The notes below the pieces were generated by a model that saw nothing but the letters and a program-made list of their open reading frames with translations, did no database searches and had not been told where the DNA came from. Below are positions 4,861 through 41,157 of a stretch of DNA of 64,000 nucleotides, one piece after another. The stretch covers positions 317,316,001-317,380,000 of the forward strand of contig OZ024740.1 of the NCBI GenBank assembly GCA_964016885.1, given 5' to 3'. A program made the translations under genes and the position numbers. Position 1 is the first letter of the stretch. The number at the start of each line of letters is the position of its first letter. The DNA is from Eledone cirrhosa (Eukaryota).

Positions 4861-5059
4861 TGTAAAATAATAATGATGACGGTTATTAATATATCATCAT
4901 CATTATTATCACCGTTTAATGTCCAATTTTTCATGCTAGCATGGGTTAGATGAGTTGTCCCATTGTGTAACAAGCCAGATAACAGTGTCTTGCTTATATA
5001 TATATATATAGCGGACGTAAAATGATGATGATACATATATATATATATATATATATGTA

Positions 5060-5230
5060 TCATCATCATTTTACGTCCGCTTTTCCCTGCTTTTCCCTAC
5101 AGCTGAGTAAACTGGAGCAATGTGAAATAAAGTGTCTTGCTCAAGGAAACCATACATCACCCGGTCTGAGAATGGAATTCACAACCTTTCGATTGAAAGC
5201 CCAATGTCCTAACCACTAAGCCATGTGCCT
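5060..5230 (-). mobile_element. tRNA-derived SINE, family B (RTE-tailed), internally deleted
   Basis: Minus strand TGGCTTAGTGG A box, CCTTGAGCAAGACACTT core and GGACGTAAAA(TGA)n tail; matches 21640-22015 and 36034-36376. Confidence 0.8.
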
Positions 5231-5235
5231 TTATA

Positions 5236-5272
<37 letters not shown>

Positions 5273-5302
5273 AGATCAAAAGATGGTTAAAGGAGTTCCA
5301 TG

Positions 5303-5373
5303 TATTTTATTATGCGCATTTCAAAAACAAACATCATCATGCAATAATATTTGTGTTTTCATCAGATAAAACA
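5303..5373 (-). ncRNA. Type I hammerhead ribozyme (minimal PLE type)
   Basis: UGUUUUAU-CUGAUGA-[long stem II]-GAAA-UGCGCA-UA-AUAAAAUA: stem I, conserved core, palindromic stem III, AUA cleavage triplet. Confidence 0.85.
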
Positions 5374-5496
5374 GGAGAACATGATATGAAGGCTAAAAAA
5401 CACTTGTGGATAGTGCAGTTTTAAATCAACATATCATATGTTGATTTAAAACTGCACTATCCACAAGTGTTTTTTAGCCTTCATATCATGTTCTCC

Positions 5497-5567
5497 TGTT
5501 TTATCTGATGAAAACACAAATATTATTGCATGATGATGTTTGTTTTTGAAATGCACATAATAAAATA
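5497..5567 (+). ncRNA. Type I hammerhead ribozyme (stem III palindrome mutated to TGCACA)
   Basis: CTGATGA 5505-5511, GAAA 5548-5551, TA 5558-5559, stem I partner ATAAAATA 5560-5567. Confidence 0.8.
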
Positions 5568-5796
5568 CATGGAACTCCTTTAACCATCTTTTGATCTTAT
5601 ATTATGTATACTCCAGTCCTACAAACTGTAGAGTGCTTCTTATCCGATATCTGCATTGCTTTATTGTACTACAATAAAACTCACCTCCTACATTATATAT
5701 ATATATATATTAGTTTCAGAAGATCCCGTTAAGGGTGAAAGCAGCGATTCTTTGCTTATATATATATATATATAGATATATATATATATATATATA

Positions 5797-6020
5797 GTAA
5801 TAATAATAAATTTGAAGACTAAATCCAAAGAGGGCTCGATAAGGATAAATATATATATAAGATATATAAGAACCGTAGAGCAAATATTTATTAAAATAAC
5901 AGATTAAAGTTTAAGCAAAGAATCGCTGCTTTCACCCTTAACGGGATTTTCAGAAGATCCCGTTAAGGGTGAAAGCAGCGATTCTTTGCTTAAACTTTAA
6001 TCTGTTATTTTAATAAATAT
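5797..6020. mobile_element. Palindromic hammerhead-like module (palindrome 5884-6020 plus left tail)
   Basis: 137-bp palindrome centred on 5952; arms read C(T/A)GAA(A/G)A-TCCC-GTTAA-GGGT-GAAA, a truncated hammerhead-like core; partial extra copy at 5714-5758; TA flanks. Confidence 0.65.
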
Positions 6021-15705: not shown

Positions 15706-15948
15706 TCTATTCTTTTTTTCAATTTACAAGGAAATACATAAAATTTGATGTTTACATGTCTATTTACTCAATGTGTAAATACATCTGCACATTTATGCAC
15801 ACACACACACACACGTAGGAGTTGTATTTAATTTGTTGGAATTCCGACAAACATAAATGTTTATAACTGATATAGAGCACTCAACAGATTACTGGAGTAA
15901 ATATTCCAAGATAATAATAAATGGAAACTATAATTATAAAACCATATT

Positions 15949-16013
15949 TATTTTATTATATATATTTCAAGGGCGACCAAGCAAAGCTTGGTGCGCTTTC
16001 ATCAGATAAAATA
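15949..16013 (-). ncRNA. Type I hammerhead ribozyme
   Basis: Exact reverse complement of 16159-16223. Confidence 0.88.
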
Positions 16014-16158
16014 CAAAATTTGTTTTATAAATAATGACATACCCATGGAAATCACACCTTAACAGTCCAAAGATTCGCTGGATAGTCTATCCAGCAAATC
16101 TTCGGACCGTTAAGGTGTGATTTCCATGGGTATGTCATTATTTATAAAACAAATTTTG

Positions 16159-16223
16159 TATTTTATCTGATGAAAGCGCACCAAGCTTTGCTTGGTCGCC
16201 CTTGAAATATATATAATAAAATA
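16159..16223 (+). ncRNA. Type I hammerhead ribozyme
   Basis: TATTTTAT-CTGATGA-AAGCGC-ACCAAGC-TTT-GCTTGGT-CGCCCTT-GAAA-TATATA-TA-ATAAAATA: 8-bp stem I, long stem II, palindromic stem III. Confidence 0.88.
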
Positions 16224-16264
16224 AATATGGTTTTATAATTATAGTTTCCATTTATTATTATCTT

Positions 16265-16303
<39 letters not shown>

Positions 16304-20954: not shown

Positions 20955-21477
20955 ATTATTTCATTTATCTTGCTTTATGTTCATACGAGTTATCACCATC
21001 ACAACCAGGTCCGCCATATTCAAGAAAAAGCACATACACACACACATATATCTTTAGGTGTTTACATTTGTGATGTATTTATATTGACAGAATCTTCCTT
21101 AGTATATGGACAGTTCCCATTAGTACTATCTTTTGTATTTCTTCCATATGCCGGTTTCCTGGGATTTGGGATAAGTAATCATTAGACCCCTTAGGTATCA
21201 TTCCTAGAGCACATACAACTACTGGTATTGTTTTAGTTCTCTACTTCCACATTTTTCCAATCTCTATCTCCAGGTCTTTATACTTGCTCAATTTTTCATA
21301 TGTTTTTATAGATATGTTCTTGTCTATAGGAACGGTCATGTCAATTAGCAGGCATACTCTCTTTTTAAAGTCCTTCAGTATTATATCAGGTCTATTTGCA
21401 TCTATTTTCCGGTCTGTTTGGACGCTAAAGTTCCACAAAATTGAAATGTGACCTTTTCCGAGTACAGGAGGTGGTTG
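20955..21477 (-). mobile_element. R4/Dong-clade non-LTR retrotransposon 3' fragment (restriction-like endonuclease pseudogene 21079-21477)
   Basis: ILWNFSVQTDRKIDANRPDIILKD...LLIDMTVP...EKLSKYKDLEIEIGKMWK*RTKTIPVVVCALGMIP...IQKIVLMGTVHILRKILSI*: PD-D-xK RLE motif with one in-frame stop; (TAA)n on both sides. Confidence 0.88.
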
Positions 21478-21639
21478 TTTATTATTATTATTATCATCAA
21501 TATTATTATTATATTTTCTTGTTATAACCTTTTTACATGGCCAAAACCCACTTTGTATTGTCCTGTACCGTCTGTAATGTTTTTTTTTCATGTTAGTCCT
21601 TGTGGTCAATAAAGAAACCATTATTATTATTATCATTAT

Positions 21640-22015
21640 GGAGGCTTAGTGGTTAGAGCATTGGCCTTGCAATCGAAAGGTTGTGAGTTCAATTTTCAGA
21701 CCAGGTGATGTGTTGTTTCCTTGAGCAAGACACTTTATTTCACATTGCTCCAGTTTACTCAGCTGTAGGAATAAGATGATAGGACTGGGGTCCCTATCAT
21801 TCCACTGCAAAGTGGTCGTGGAGGTGCCACGGCAAAAAAGCACCCAGCCCACACTGCAATGTGGACGTGTAGGCGCCACGGAAAAAAAAGCACCCAGCAC
21901 TCACTGTAAATGAGGTTGGTGTTAGGAAGGGCATCCAGCTGTAGAAATCAAGCCAGAATCAGTTCCCGTCCCACCCTTGCAAACAGGGAAAAGCGGACGT
22001 AAAATGATGATGATA
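21640..22015 (+). mobile_element. Full-length family B SINE (tRNA head, core, RTE-derived 3' end)
   Basis: GGCTTAGTGGTTAGAGC A box, GAGTTCAATT B box, CCTTGAGCAAGACACTT core, GGTTGGTGTTAGGAAGGGCATCCAGC...GGACGTAAAA(TGA)n. Confidence 0.85.
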
Positions 22016-27344: not shown

Positions 27345-28976
27345 TGGGCCAGATTCAGGATCATGGCAGCTGATGAGAGTCTCAAATTTATTTTTTTTTT
27401 AATTTAGTAATATTTGAAAACTTAGTACCACTAAATTATGACTTAAAGTGTTTATTTCCTTAATAAGATTCTATGGAAAAAGCTTTCTATCATTTTGAGA
27501 AGTAAAAAAAAATGTAAATATCTGTTAATTTAATTAGACAATTTATTGAAAGTTTAAACATATTGTCAAAAATTACGTTAATGAGTTCAGTGATAGAGAA
27601 TTGTCAGAACTAAACAAGATATACTTTATGTGTCTTTTTAAAGCAAATATTATTATTCCATTGAAGTCAATTCTATTTGCAAGTTCACCCTGAACGACAG
27701 GTAGGTCATTTGCTCTTTCCTGTGTCATCATGCTCTTTATGTGAAGCACCTGATGAGCTTTTGTTTGCTGAAAGGGTTCTCAGTAAATGTTATAACTGGC
27801 AATGTATACAATATTCATAGTGTAATATATTCATTTGGAAAAATGTCACCTAGCATGTATATTTTATTATGTTTAAAATTTAATTATGTTTAAAATTTAA
27901 AATTTCTCTTGCATGTATTCTTAGAGTATTTGTCCAACAATCTCATGCATGCATGTTTGAGTATCTCTTATCATGCTTCGACATTACCACAGAAAATGCA
28001 GAACAATCTATTAATTGTGTCTGCTGCATCAAACTGCTTTGACAATACAGAAATAAGATATCTTGTTTAAATTCAAATTCAGAGAGATCATATGAGCCAA
28101 CATGATTTTCTCACATGTTCTTTTCTGATTCTTCATGACAATAAGTCTTGCTCTCTATTTTTTTTAAATTTCTGTTTTGATGGGAGATGGGGCTCAATTT
28201 AGCAACAAGTTTTGCTTCATTTAAAATCTGTAACTATTTCCCACATAAATCTTCAAGACCATACATGTATAGCTCTAGATTTGAGACCTCTACATCCACT
28301 GTGTAACCTCTCTTGCCTGAATGATCAAATTTCTCCTGTTCATCTGTATTTGGATCTCCAATTGTAACCTTTTGATGTTTCTATTAATAAGACTTCCACG
28401 AAAGAAAAATGGAAGAGCTGGATACAGCAAAAAAGTTTTACTAAGAACACTACTGGGCAAAGGCAAAATGCTTTTTGTTCCTGTTCTGTTGGCGTTAGGA
28501 AATGCATCCAGCCCGTCCTATCCATGCTAGCATGGAAAATGGACATTAAACAAATGATGATGATGATGATGATAATGTAAAAAATTCATGGAAAAAAGTG
28601 AGAAGTGATTAATGATAAAAGGCATTTTAAAATTTTGTACCAGTAACACAAATGATGGTACCAAAGATGACATTCTCTTTGAAAACAATACGCATCCTGT
28701 GATGAACTTTCAGATTCTTATCCAAGCAATTGTGAAAGCAATGATGATAATGTAGATTTTGAAGCTAACTCAATACACCTTTTTATGCCTTCAATATATT
28801 TTTTTTATTTCAATGTTTTGAACTCTTTTGCATCAGCAACAATATTATTTTTAAAGTCAGGTTAAATAAAATCTTCAAACAATTTTTTTTAAAAACTACT
28901 ATAACTACTATAACCTTTTTCCTAACCTTCACCATCAAAATAAAGGTGTATCTTATATCTAAAAAGATCCAGTCTG
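27345..28976 (-). mobile_element. Decayed hAT transposon (transposase dimerisation-domain remnant at ~27640-27855)
   Basis: Minus strand IFPNEYITL*ILYTLPV...FSKQKLIR / SMMTQERANDL...ELANRIDFNGII resembles the hAT C-terminal FPN..LPV..ERSFSKLKLIK..MxQERL motif. Ends are tentative (GGGCCAGATTC / GATCCAGTCTG). Confidence 0.6.
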
Positions 28977-29984: not shown

Positions 29985-30315
29985 TATTTTTATATATACG
30001 AAATATGTCAAAAATAAAGAGAGAGAGAGAATAGAGACCACAGCTTGTGTGTTCAGCAAGCCTTTTCAAGGGCTTAAGAATTTTTGCATTACCTGACATA
30101 GCAGTACTGTGGTCAAATTTGGCATAGTGGTAAGCTGGGCTCAGGGAGAAGATGGGAGAGGAAGGGAAAAAAGTTGGGGCAGAGAATGGTAAGTGTATCT
30201 AAGCAAGCTAGTTTATGTATATTGGATTGTCAAGTATGAAATTTGTAGAAATTTGTTTTTATTCTACAAATTTCATACTTGATGACCCAATATACATCAA
30301 AGCGAAACCTAGTTA

Positions 30316-30692
30316 CTAGGCACCTCTTAACCAAATATACACCCCAACCCACTACCCCTACTCCATCCTCCCACTCCCACCAACACCACCCCTTTCTCTG
30401 TAAAGTTATGTTGGTACCACAACTTCCAGTCTAAACAAATGAGGTCGTGTAGGTGTCGCGACAAAAAAACACACAGTCCACGCTGTAATGTGGCCGTGTA
30501 GGTAACACGGTAAAAACCTCCCAGTACACACTGTAAACGTGGTTGGTGTTAGGAAGGGAATCCAGCCGTAGAAAACCTGCCAGATAGTCCTGACAAGCGA
30601 GACACGGTCACCTGACCAATGTTGCCTCAAGGGGGACAACTCAAATCCAACCCATGCTAGCGTGGAAGATAGATGTTAAACAATGATGGTGA
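30316..30692 (+). mobile_element. RTE LINE 3' UTR fragment with (TGA)n tail
   Basis: Matches 1087-1279 and the reverse complement of 30701-31065. Confidence 0.88.
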
Positions 30693-30700
30693 TATATATA

Positions 30701-32551
30701 TCATCATCATCATCGTTTAACGTCCATCTTCCACGCTTGCATGGGTTTGGACGGGAGGTTTCCCACTTGAGGCAAGATTTGTTGTCCTGTGCTCGTATAG
30801 GACTGTCTGGCGGGTTTTCTACGGCTGGATGCCCTTCCTAACACCAACCACGTTTACAGTGTGGACTGGGAGGTTTTTACCATGTTAGCTACACGGCCAC
30901 ATTACAGCGTGGACTGTGTGTTTTTTTGTCGTGACACCTACACGACCTCATTTGTTTCAGACTGGATGTTGTGGTACCAACATAACTTCACATTTAATGG
31001 GGGTAGTGTGGATGGGGTGTGGGTAGTGGGATGGGGGGGGGGGGGGTATTTTGTAAGAGGTGCCCACTGACTGTAGGTTTAGCTTTGTACTTATGCAAGG
31101 TGGGTCTTCTGTATGACTGTGTAGCGCCAAAGATCTCGGTCCAGTGACATTGTCTTGGAGAGGTGTAAGTGTGTGAGGTCGGAATTTATCAAGTCGTCCC
31201 AGGTTTTTCTGGGTCTGCCTACTCCGTGGCTACCGTCTATTTTTATCGCCCTGCACTTTTTTATACAGCTGTCGTCTTTCATGCGCATCACGTGACTACC
31301 AACGTAGTCTTCTCTCGAGTAAACAACATCTGATCCCTCTTATTCCTAATTTCTCCCTTAGTTCGTTTATGCTTTGCCATTCACGTATATTACTATTACA
31401 CATCCAGCGGAGCATGCAAGCTTCGTTTCTCTCCAGTCTGCGTATATCCTCTGCACACAATGTCCAGGTCTCACTGCCATGTAACATTGCTAATCGTATG
31501 CAGGCATTATACAGCCTGCCTTTCATTTTTAGAGAGAACCCTTTAGCGGCCAATAGTGGTATAAGCTCTCTGAACTTTTTCCATCCCGTTTTGACTCTAG
31601 CTACTGTACTTTCAGAGCACCCTCCCCCACTGCTGATTTTGTCACCCAGGTAACGGAAGGTGTCCACTATTTCTCTAGAACCATCTGTGCAATGGAATGA
31701 GCTAGTATTTTGTGGGCACTTGCTGCTACTTATTGCACCAGAGCACCGGCCACATATAAAATCTATGTTCTTAGTTAGCTTACCTGTGATCCCACTACAT
31801 CTTTTATGCACCCATACTTTGCATTTGGGACATAAAATGGAGTTTCTGCCTACTCCTTTCCTACACACTGAGCATGGCCATTTCCCAGATGGGACCGGTG
31901 CCCTATTTTCCTTCCTACAAACTAGAACTTTAGTCTTAGACAAGTTAACTTTAAGGCCTTTTGATTCTAGGCCATGCTTCCATGTTTGGAATTTTTTCTC
32001 TAGTTCAGCCATTGATTCAGCTATGAGTGTTAGATCATCTGCATATAGGAGTTCCCATGGGCAGCCAGTCTTGAACTCCTCTGTTATAGCCTGAAGGGCA
32101 ATAATAAATAGTAGGGGGCTAAGAACGGAGCCCTGATGAACACCAACTTTTACGCTAAACTCTTCACTATATTCGTTGTTAATTCTAACCTTGCTGACTG
32201 TTTCTTTATACATGGCTTGTATAGTTCTCACAAGCCAATCAACACCTAGTTTTCTAAGCGCCCAGCAGATAATGGAGCGGGGGACTCTGTCAAAAGCTTT
32301 CTCCAAGTCAACAAAAGCTAAGTATATGGGTTTACTTTTAGCTAGGTACTTCTCTTGTAGTTGTCGTACAATGAAAAGAGCGTCTGTGGTACTTTTACCT
32401 GACACAAACCTGAACTGCATTTCATCTAGATCAATTCGTTCTCTGATTAGTTGCGCTATTACTTTTTCTGTGACCTTCATGACCTGGTCGATTAATTTAA
32501 TGCCTCTATAGTTACCTCTATCAAGAGCATCTCCTTTACCCTTGTAGCAGT
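30701..32551 (-). mobile_element. 5'-truncated RTE LINE (~1.85 kb)
   Basis: RT ORF, C-terminus, 3' UTR and GGACGTTAAACGATGATGATG tail; the 5' end abuts (TA)n. Confidence 0.95.
31091..32551 (-). pseudogene. RTE reverse transcriptase ORF (truncated; 2-bp deletion near 31298)
   Basis: NYRGIKL, FVDLEKAFDRV, GVHQGSVLSPLLF, LLYADDL, GLKVNLSKTK, FRYLGD motifs; CACGTGACTACC here versus CACGTGACCATACC at 1802 shows the frameshift. Confidence 0.95.
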
Positions 32552-32924
32552 TTATATATATATATATATACATATGCTGTGTGTAACATTTTTTTTACAA
32601 TAGGTACAATGTATTCTGCTTGTAATAAGGGGCAACTAAAAGTGTTGGGGTCAGGAAGGGCGTCTTAAAATATTGTCTTTGAACATCCCATCCAACCCAT
32701 GCCAGCTTTGAGAAATGCAAGCAGGGAAAAGCGGACGTATGATGATGATGATATATATATATATATATATATATTCATAAAGTGTACCAGGTAGAATGTA
32801 GGAACACATGGAAGGAATATGTAAGAGCCCCAGACTGCGTCAGTAGCTCTGCTTGAGTACTGATTTGGTCTTTGAAAACCCTTCCAACCCTTGTTATATG
32901 GATGTTAAATGATGATGCTGAATG

Positions 32925-35414: not shown

Positions 35415-35828
35415 CTATAAAGTAAAGTATGTCCATAGAATCATTTGATAATATATATACGTCATTTTTTTCTCTCAATTAGCATAATTAACCACACAAA
35501 AAATCAATTAGACCAGGCTATAAGATTAAAAGGCACCTATGAAGAAACAGTAAATAAATAAACGAAAGCAGCGTCTTCGCGGCCAACAGCTATAGAATAT
35601 TTACCCAACATTTCAACAGCACGTGGAAATTAATTAAATATACGGTCAACCATACACAATTAGGTATAAAATTAAAGTTAGAAATGCATATATACATACT
35701 ACTCTACACTAATATGCATCCACTCATTTATTTTATGCATGTGTTTATACAGATAGATATAGATATATATATATACACACACATATGCACAAATGAGTGT
35801 TGTGTGTGTTTATATATATATATATATA

Positions 35829-35935
35829 ATGCTGAAAACACTGGTTCTCGTCCTATGACCGAAGTTAAGCAACTTCGAGCCTAGTTAGTACTTTGATAGG
35901 TGATCGTTTGTGAAACCTAGGTGTTGTAAGCATTT
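35829..35935 (+). pseudogene. 5S rRNA pseudogene, 5'-truncated
   Basis: GCTGAAAACACTGGTTCTCGTCCTATGACCGAAGTTAAGC...GTTAGTACTTTGATAGGTGATCG...GGTGTTGTAAGC matches invertebrate 5S from about nt 16; box A intact, box C mutated; T-run downstream. Confidence 0.92.
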
Positions 35936-37057: not shown

Positions 37058-37091
<34 letters not shown>

Positions 37092-37203
37092 AGTAGAACA
37101 CTGTAGGGTAATATCCGTAGTAGTAGAGCACTCAGTCCATGGGACGAGTTTAGTAGAAGTAGTTCTACAACAGTTAGTTCACTATACTGAGAACAAATGT
37201 TTC

Positions 37204-37246
37204 ACCTAGCTGAAGATCCGCATAAGGTGAAACATTTGTTCTTGGT
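37204..37246 (+). ncRNA. Minimal type I hammerhead-like motif within an inverted-repeat module (37089-37265)
   Basis: ACCTAG-CTGAAGA-TCC-GCATAA-GGT-GAAA-C-ATTT-G-TT-CTTGGT; arms 37167-37207 and 37225-37265. Confidence 0.6.
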
Positions 37247-37861
37247 ATCGTGAACTAACAGTTGTCTTTACCATGAAAATTTAATAGTATATATACAGTA
37301 ATGTAAATGTTAAAGGATTAAAGTATCTGAAAGCAAGGTTGAAGAAATATCTTACAGTAATCATAACTGAGAAATACAAATTTCTTCTATATGGAATATT
37401 GAAGCCATATTGTTGCAGTGGTCGAGCTTCTTTTACAAACATATTACCATTTGTAGATTTGTCTGTGTTTGTCAATATTAACATTATGGACAAAGCTAAC
37501 AATTGTTCAGTATTTTGTTGGTCATAATATTATAACTAAGATGGATAGTTTGCTTTGCAGTTTTGTTCCAGCTCTAGAAGCTTTAGTCAAATGTAAAACT
37601 GAGCTTCTACATTGAACAGTCAAATGTCTGGAAAGGTACCTCAACGACTGGTTACACCAGTTGTAAGCACTTGATTTATTGATTTGATGTATAAATATAT
37701 ATGCACATATACATATACACACACACATATATATAGCATCTAGCCATAGAAAACCAGCCAGAAACATCCCTATATGAGAGAGACACGGTCACCCGACACA
37801 ACTTGCTTCAAAATAGGACTCATCTAACTCATGTTAGCATGGAAGATGGACGTTAATCGAT

Positions 37862-38945: not shown

Positions 38946-39006
38946 CACACACACACACAGACATGTATGTGTATATATATGTCATTACAGTTTAACATCC
39001 ATTATA

Positions 39007-39054
<48 letters not shown>

Positions 39055-39069
39055 TATAATGGATGTTAA

Positions 39070-39634
39070 CTTTGTTGAATGTTCATAACACCAATCTAAA
39101 TCAGGAAACTATAGTTCCTATCGTAAATAACTTATCCAATCCAATTCCTTCTATAAATAATACTAGGTCACTTGTTAATAACTCTGGTAATTTCTCTAAT
39201 CTTAATTGTAATTGCCCTGTTAGAACTAAATGTCCTCTTAATAACCAATATCTTGATAAAAATTTAGTGTATGAATGTAAGGTTATAACTAGTACTAATT
39301 CTTTTACCTATTTTGGTTCCACTTCCACTTCCTTTAAAGCAAGATTTTATAATCACAATTTGTCTTTTAAATACCACTTAAAAGAACTCACACGGCACTC
39401 TCAGAACTCATATGGTCCTTAAAAGACAAAAATATTAACTACAACATCTCTTGGAGGAAGGTTTGCAATGCCTCTCCTTACCAGAATTCTTCCCTATCCA
39501 GAACATGTAATCTCTGCCTAGCCAAGAAATTTACCATTATCTCTAATTTTAATTCTATAATAAATAGACGTACGGATTTATTTTCGCTCTGCTTGCATAA
39601 ATCCCATAGAACTTTCCATAAAGTATACAGCTAA
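39070..39634 (+). pseudogene. GIY-YIG endonuclease C-terminal domain of a PLE ORF (one frameshift near 39390)
   Basis: CNCPVRTKCPLNNQYLDKNLVYECKV...YFGSTSTSFKARFYNHNLSF, then TALSELIWSLKDKNINYNISW...RTCNLCLAKK...INRRTDLFSLCLHK...VYS*. Confidence 0.9.
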
Positions 39635-40569
39635 TATCTCAGTACCTAATTAGTTTAAAATCTTTTCTCAAACGCTTTTATATCTTTTACAAATATACCC
39701 ATCTTTCTACCTTATTTCAGTATATTATATTATACAATTTACTCACTCTATGTCATTAGCGGTCCCCTATTTTTCTTCTTTTTTATCCTTTTTTCCTTTT
39801 TAATTTCTAATCTTTAATCTGTAACTTTTACTTCTCAATTACTTCTTAATTCATATTATTACTCACTATAGTATTTTCCTTATATTCTTGGCCATACAAA
39901 CTATATTTTTAATATATACTAATATTACCATTAGTAAATTTTGTAAACATTTATTTTTTGACGTTATATTTTTTCTTCCTTAAATTTTCTTCTTTCCTTC
40001 CGTGCTCGTATTAAACCTATTATTTACTTTTTCATATTACAATACATAAAAACAAACTTAAACCCTAACTAATTCTTCTAAGTTCATTTAATCTCTTCTT
40101 CATTCACCTTATATCCTTAATATTTTAATTTTAATAATACATATTAATAAATTCCTTTTCGCACATATTATTAAATATATAAACCTTAAATAAATACTAT
40201 TCTTAATTTCTTATTCTTTAATCATAAACATCACCATTCATAAGCCTCATTAACTTTTAATTTCAAAATCTTTTTAAATTATCTATTATCTTTCAACGGT
40301 TTTTTAATTTCTCTCTGTGATACAATGTTTTCTCAGTTGTAAAGGCTATTTCTCTCTCTCTATCACTCATTTCTCCTCCTCTCTCATCCTTCCTTCTTAT
40401 ACTCCTCCTCCGTCATCCTTTATTTTCTTTCTTCCTCACCTTTTCCTACCCCCCCCCCCCCCATCCTTTTTTTTCTCAATCTCATATATCCATCTTACTT
40501 TATTTTTCATATGTTGATTTAACACTTCACTGCTCGCAAGTGTTTTTTGAGCTTCATATCATGTCTCCC

Positions 40570-40640
40570 TATTTTATCTGATGAGAACGCAAATAGCATC
40601 CCATGATGATATTTGTTTTTGAAATGCGCATAATAAAATA
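40570..40640 (+). ncRNA. Type I hammerhead ribozyme in the PLE pLTR
   Basis: TATTTTAT-CTGATGA(40578-84)-stem II-GAAA(40621-24)-TGCGCA-TA-ATAAAATA; perfect 8-bp stem I. Confidence 0.88.
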
Positions 40641-41157
40641 CATGGAACTCTTTTAACCATCTTTTGATCTTATATTATATATATATATATATATGTATGT
40701 ATATTTGCCAGTCTTTGCGATTTGATATCCGCCCTCACAACCACTGCCCAAGTCTTTTTTAGTCATCCTCTATTACGGCTTTCTTCCACTGTGATTTCCT
40801 GGCATTTCTTCACCTATCGGTCATTGTCCATGTGCATGACATGTCCATACCAACACAGTCTTCTCTGTTCCACACCATCTTGGATTCCCTTAAGCCCAGA
40901 TTCTCTTACAGATCTGCCTTTCTCTCACATTTACATTGCACATCCAACGAAACATGGTATGTTTTTGTCTATTCATATTTAACATTGCAGGTGGTGATAT
41001 TTGTTTATAGTTTGCATAAACAAAAATCCCACTGCCAAGTGATTGGCTGTGCAAAGATCCAATAAAAATACAGAGAAGGGTTCGCATCAGAAAGTGTAAA
41101 CATATGTGTGCGTGTGTGTGTGTGCATATGTGTATGATAAACAGAGATATTTCCATG

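Follow-up and report, generated by a model that had tools for sequence, protein, structure and literature searches.

We consider it probable that the palindrome at 5265-5605 of the window (the whole 64,000-nt stretch of Eledone cirrhosa DNA analysed here) consists of two head-to-head ends of a Hydra-clade Penelope-like element (PLE), primed twice at one (TA)n cut, one before each of two hairpins. The 5265 locus is likely a dead-on-arrival stub and not a working module. An insertion by-product is favoured over a replicating palindromic unit, since the position of the turn with respect to the ribozyme varies among the four stubs of this kind in the window. For PLEs and the Hydra clade, the literature already describes TA targeting and hammerheads as well as inverted pLTRs and one-sided tails. 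The value of the 5265 stub lies in its being a clean record of one insertion: its arms are equal, its junction is 1 nt long and both of its ends are defined.

The stub is embedded in AT-rich, microsatellite-rich DNA of animal type, with repeats that may resemble those of octopods. The original prediction of a 341-bp palindrome with one mismatch proved real: the arms are 5265-5434 and 5436-5605, separated by a 1-nt spacer (C5435), with a mismatch only at 5315/5555. The tail, announced as about 90 bp on one side, measures 87 bp and is confined to the right side; TA tracts are present on both flanks. No ORF had been seen, and indeed nothing beyond trivial frames overlaps 5265-5692 (two mirrored frames of 28 aa and one of 42 aa). 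The parts of the stub are as follows.

About 5239-5264, no strand: left (TA)n target tract.
5265-5434, minus strand: inverted arm, a pLTR end without tail, which stops a few bases short of the tail-hairpin position (site A).
5303-5373, minus strand: minimal type I hammerhead with intact palindromic stem III (ATGCGCAT); predicted cleavage between 5311 and 5310.
5435, no strand: turning point, a 1-nt spacer; going by the relative at 40507, its base agrees with the direct copy that bears the tail.
5436-5605, plus strand: direct arm, a pLTR end.
5497-5567, plus strand: minimal type I hammerhead with core 5505-5511, GAAA at 5548-5551, predicted cleavage at 5559/5560 and the rare stem III allele A5555.
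5606-5692, plus strand: one-sided PLE tail of 87 nt, right flank only, with site B as its terminus.
5610-5637, plus strand: tail hairpin ACTC-CAGT-loop-ACTG-TA-GAGT-GCT, 50 nt after the cleavage site.
5694-5710, no strand: right (TA)n target tract.

The features of EN+ PLE insertions found at 5265-5692 are a minimal type I hammerhead pLTR, a head-to-head inverted, 5'-truncated copy and a tail at one end; insertion into (TA)n is a feature of the Hydra clade. An inverted, 5'-truncated copy combined with a one-sided tail is the PLE footprint given in the accessible parts of PMC8557442 and PMC3846280, and it supports the suggestion, one of two made originally, that the palindrome is a stereotyped insertion product. 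The same footprint, along with an 87% identical relative downstream of a Hydra-type endonuclease fragment, supports the proposed PLE origin, as the flanking TA tracts and contig ends entering TA (see below) support TA targeting.

A complete type I hammerhead had been predicted on each strand, and both are present. Read outward, each arm carries TTTTAT-CTGATGA, a long stem II, GAAA, a 6-nt stem III insert, TA and the stem I partner; the CTGATGA cores lie at 5505 (plus strand) and 5365 (minus strand), with an 8-bp stem I and an AUA cleavage triplet. Our hammerhead descriptor matched five times in positions 1-41750 of the window and not once in any of 100 block shuffles. Rfam at its gathering threshold reported no hammerhead in the window, only a 5S match. 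Because the mismatch 5315/5555 falls in stem III of the plus-strand copy (TGCACA versus the palindromic TGCGCA), this hammerhead is predicted to be weakened, the stem III dimer helix being computed at -3.7 kcal/mol as against -10.5 kcal/mol for the palindromic form. RNA of the full palindrome is predicted to form one long hairpin (-282.9 kcal/mol, z -40), and the predicted probability of hammerhead stem I is about zero in plus-strand transcripts that contain the left arm, in agreement with the idea that a duplex of about 170 bp would mask the ribozyme. As each ribozyme would have come along with one copied end, both may be regarded as passengers, predicted to be buried in the 170-bp duplex on read-through.

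The original prediction counted about seven such modules in 41 kb. Recurrence across families stands, but the number was overstated: we found four PLE-type palindromic stubs, of which only two have a hammerhead in both arms. Besides the 5265 stub (family 1), these are the following.

15816-16271, no strand: second family; palindrome 15901-16271 with two hammerheads, a 1-nt spacer and a tail with the same hairpin on the left.
5797-6020, no strand: third family; palindrome 5884-6020, which turns inside the hammerhead core, without a complete ribozyme and with a degenerate left tail.
37090-37265, no strand: fourth family; palindrome 37167-37265, which is older, has its arms set apart by a 17-nt spacer and carries a single partial hammerhead, with a hairpin tail on the left.

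Two of the four stubs turn ahead of the core, by 69 and 80 nt; another turns within it (5952), and the last across the asymmetric 17-nt spacer of 37167-37265. The fold-back point, proposed as a check, thus differs relative to the ribozyme among four stubs of different families, which favours insertion by-products. Three of the four junctions have a 1-nt spacer; asymmetric head-to-head junctions were seen at the Hydra-type metagenome loci L017 and L079 and at the 37167 stub. With two stubs lacking a ribozyme pair, the pair is not the conserved part of the arrangement; the two ends and the tail hairpin are.

Five further palindromes (928-1734, 30399-30992, 30212-30300, 5010-5081 and 38990-39072) were rejected as members, having neither hammerhead nor tail hairpin, and a core-like match at 27750 failed the stem I scan. 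Both 928-1734 and 30298-31087 are inverted pairs from a different repeat family, old and 81-88% identical, and a short TA tract marks the centre of the latter; 30212-30300 is an imperfect, MITE-like hairpin of 89 bp without hammerhead or tail. In the intervals 5010-5081 and 38990-39072, a TA tract is flanked by a short, perfect inverted duplication, of about 24 and 19 bp respectively, which continues as a longer repeat on one side only; these duplications may reflect template switching at TA hairpins, unlike the process behind the PLE stubs. Between two TA tracts, 5714-5758 is an exact 45-bp copy of 5948-5992, a segment that includes the turning point of 5884-6020.

Two further features of the window bear on the parent.

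39052-39634, plus strand: broken C-terminal GIY-YIG fragment of Hydra type, in two reading frames.
40507-40683, plus strand: relative of the arm, 87% identical, with an intact hammerhead (core 40578), no inverted arm and no tail, ending in TA at site A.

The fragment likely belongs to a 5'-truncated autonomous relative. It contains CNCPVRTKC (CxCx5C linker), CNLC (CxxC) and CLH (CxH) and no CCHH, the combination by which we recognised Hydra-clade endonucleases. According to section 11 of PMC8557442, this clade combines (TA)n targeting and hammerheads with the CxCx5C linker, CxxC and CxH, and occurs in molluscs. The Pfam GIY-YIG match of the fragment lies below the cut-off (E 0.027). A HMMER search with the fragment returned 810 relatives with E values up to 0.001; longer relatives were also sought by two word-based protein searches, which returned none. 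One full-length homologue, P0123, has the motifs RWR and DKT (RWK and DKT in the Hydra clade). As to an autonomous parent ORF, the window holds only this broken endonuclease fragment upstream of the 87% relative and no reverse transcriptase (RT) of family 1. That the fragment and the 40507 end form one element is inferred from one copy and from strand composition, the stretch upstream of the 40507 end being G-poor and read as 3' UTR; the distance from stop codon to core is about 940 nt, longer than in the Hydra consensi in the accessible part of the published set.

That homology with the 40507 relative begins at the turning point is trivial, because the stub contains no sequence beyond it. Ahead of the corresponding point in the relative there is a weak TATAT…TCATA arrangement, unremarkable in AT-rich DNA. 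Four paired pLTRs had 12, 80, at least 87 and 165 nt in common upstream of the core, with no common start evident. No palindromic junction was found upstream of 16 5'-type locus hammerheads, and an exact hammerhead pattern had no match in the metagenome contigs.

Other repeats share the window. A 432-aa open frame at 31296-32594 (minus strand) encodes a LINE-type reverse transcriptase with an internal Cys-rich segment, which we take to be RTE-like. The open frame at 21241-21645 (plus strand) ends in a restriction-like endonuclease motif (RPDIIL…LLIDMTVP) and is presumably a fragment of another non-LTR element. A 5S rRNA-like sequence (35814-35932, plus strand; 56 bits) directly follows a TA tract and is likely a pseudogene or SINE head. 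A 48-bp satellite of about 490 copies, strongly A-skewed, occupies 41739-64000.

The tail hairpin is shared by stubs of different families. ACTC-stem-loop-GAGTGCT opens the tails of the 5265, 15901-16271 and 37167-37265 stubs, and the tails of the first two align better than all of 1000 shuffles. A hairpin scan of the window gave six raw matches, three of them at stub tails, against a shuffle mean of 0.43. In Hydra-type metagenome loci, 33 of 41 eligible hammerheads are followed by an RCTC…GAGYRC hairpin at a distance of 28-54 nt from the cleavage site, compared with 77 of 8950 background windows; the count covers hammerheads with enough downstream sequence in the best 80 of 134 loci, two rows from the window having been removed, and these 80 loci are not independent, several looking like one host. 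A second copy often follows 101-125 nt after the cleavage site. The hairpin at 5610-5637 is identical to locus L014 at 22 of 23 nt.

The inner stem, which the search motif does not demand, shows 8-12 double changes at each of its three pairs in 27 aligned hairpins, and its covariation score was matched by none of 500 shuffles; the set comprises chosen first hairpins, the three from the window and one from L014, with the outer stem selected by motif and the loci related. The minimum-energy fold of the 5265 tail prefers another hairpin, and the minimum-energy folds of the other three tails show the conserved one. Many Hydra-type elements (L014 330-470, other loci within L007-L073) have twin GCTC…GAGCACT hairpins between hammerhead and ORF start; L014 and L055 each carry two or more divergent Hydra copies in opposite orientation.

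Insertion ends cluster right before hairpin 1 or about where hairpin 2 begins. In 12 of 13 locus ends abutting TA, the TA tract starts either 31-49 nt (seven ends) or 80-112 nt (five ends) after the cleavage site; our listing of ends with a hairpin within 25 nt is an illustration by selection, with one doubtful row (L054). On visual inspection, this motif also follows the hammerhead in the published consensi Hydra-2_Amil and Hydra-2_Ajap and occurs twice at the start of Hydra-1_Ajap, as far as the supplement of PMC8557442 is accessible. The accessible parts of that paper do not describe the hairpin, and our literature search, which covered sources other than subscription papers and Repbase, did not find it in print. 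The hairpin may tell the element's enzyme where to begin copying, and it offers a direct mutational test of how PLEs build inverted ends and tails.

The insertion that we propose would proceed as follows. The element's GIY-YIG endonuclease would nick both (TA)n strands, and the RT would prime from both nicks at two internal RNA start sites, each a few bases 5' of an RCTC…GAGYRC hairpin. A start before hairpin 1 would give the short arm, and a start before hairpin 2 the arm plus tail. Both cDNAs would halt at almost one position, which is most simply taken as the 5' end of a single RNA that served as template for both, and would be joined end to end, leaving the 1-nt spacer. This shared template end is an extra assumption, required because 1-nt spacers in three of four stubs are not what random truncation of each cDNA on its own would produce. 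According to the accessible parts of PMC11167929, a PLE protein in purified form nicks both strands of the target, extends both and initiates at two internal positions on the RNA, between which the tail lies; the hammerhead of this in vitro-studied PLE is not needed for insertion.

The main rival shares the PLE origin, but lets one cDNA fold back and prime itself, copying the arm and halting before the tail. Such self-priming was proposed for PLE palindromic junctions (Discussion of PMC3846280, as accessible) and accounts for identical arms and for the 1-nt spacers in three of four stubs, yet a 1-nt loop offers no paired primer. The spacer base fits the tail-bearing copy in two stubs, but the 17-nt spacer of the 37167 stub, though this stub is degraded, belongs to the tail-less arm. 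Single site A ends without an inverted arm exist as well (40683; Hydra-type loci), showing that site A needs no fold-back, and altogether we hold self-priming to be unlikely.

Sequencing runs bear on family 1. Run X1 may stem from the very sample that gave the window; of its contigs, 4410 match arm plus tail, and 1264 of these are at least 99% identical. Summed contig depth is here no measure of copy number. Runs X21 and X24, labelled as another organism, had no matching reads, which is uninformative. At 5555, G accounts for 98% of depth, so that a palindromic stem III is the rule and A5555 is private or rare. Within the hammerhead, the variants at 5498, 5522 and 5538 preserve base pairs, that at 5530 lies in a loop, and none is listed in the core. 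At the other listed polymorphic positions of the arm, both arms of the 5265 stub carry identical alleles, as expected if one template served both. Loose contig ends entering TA at 5592 (25 contigs), 5610 (33) and 5693 (25) represent two termini, without and with the tail. Family 1 is abundant and young, and the 5265 locus is an ordinary young PLE stub.

Depth in X1 is flat from 5535 to about 5454. Truncation within the arm therefore seems to affect few copies, and a preferred turning point, at 5435 or upstream of it, would be compatible with this. Among the X1 contigs, no strand-change joints are listed within the arm, but as rare variants are lost from contigs, this does not prove that the turning point is fixed. 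It is possible, if rather doubtful, that the template of family 1 is a short transcript of the pLTR alone whose 5' end is defined and lies at 5435, and that twin hairpins of the GCTC…GAGCAC type guide the Hydra RT onto both (TA)n cut ends. If so, the genome would be seeded with many stereotyped loci of perfect 170-bp hairpins that yield long dsRNA on read-through, and the hairpin would be a cis signal for internal RT initiation in the Hydra clade.

The abundance and youth of the family (1264 of 4410 contigs at 99% or more), the flat depth in the arm's 5' part and a tail covered to about half the depth seen at the 3' end of the arm could also be read as signs of a non-autonomous element, i.e. 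palindrome plus tail transcribed whole, mobilised in trans and possessing a fixed turning point. A replicating class of two-ribozyme palindromes had been one option of the original prediction; we do not favour it and rate it as decidedly improbable. Turning points vary among families, one lying inside the ribozyme core, and the 87% identical 40507 relative ends without an inverted arm. The 5265 stub has no inherited arm asymmetry, its single arm difference being the rare allele A5555. One contig of run X4 extends 205 nt past 5436 in sequence not shown as arm, and the 170-bp duplex would be predicted to silence both ribozymes.

Very little probability attaches to a stub from another PLE clade (e.g. 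Neptune or Poseidon) that is merely Hydra-like. Its stem III starts AT, whereas 50 of 51 locus hammerhead rows start AC, and its hairpin, of the ACTC/GAGTGCT variant, departs from the Hydra forms sampled, the sampling having covered Hydra-type loci; but position and sequence of the hairpin match Hydra-type loci and three published Hydra consensi (in the accessible supplement), and the nearby endonuclease has the Hydra linker. An assembly or chimeric-read artefact is hardly credible: although no read was seen spanning the locus and none of the contigs listed spans the stretch, the point where symmetry is lost coincides exactly with the element's biological end, the two flanks are unlike, only one side has a tail, and the other three stubs share the layout with diverged arms.

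Several known systems provide comparisons for the proposed head-to-head joining of two PLE ends. Known type I hammerheads with a short palindromic helix III are of the same type and are thought to act as dimers, with low activity in vitro; in the 5265 stub the two motifs are on opposite strands, so that no cis dimer can form. Animal non-LTR retrozymes (bioRxiv 10.64898/2026.07.22.740005, accessible part) are, like the stub, non-coding and PLE-derived with a type I hammerhead. They are head-to-tail tandem units, whereas no head-to-tail tandem hammerhead units were found at the 5265 locus. In Poseidon PAc of Anolis (Frangieh et al. 2024, PMC11167929, accessible part), two internal RT start sites bound the tail, both strands are cut and extended, and targets are AT-rich; PAc belongs to another clade, and its tail is short and within the ORF start. 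The inverted pLTRs of EN+ Penelope in Adineta vaga (PMC3846280, accessible part) resemble the stub in their head-to-head pLTRs, junction palindromes, optional one-arm tail and solo pLTRs. In those insertions, the neighbour of the inverted pLTR is usually a direct copy of greater length, whereas both copies of the 5265 stub are pLTR-only and of near-equal length. Closest are the Hydra-clade PLEs with a C-terminal endonuclease (Craig et al. 2021, PMC8557442, accessible part). Compared with these, the stub is without an ORF, its stem III starts AT, its stem II is long and its tail measures 87 nt versus the 30-40 nt stated for PLEs. On the other hand, (TA)n insertion and a type I hammerhead near the 3' end are shared, the CxCx5C linker recurs in the stub's nearby relative, and the tail hairpin is visible by eye in three Hydra consensi.
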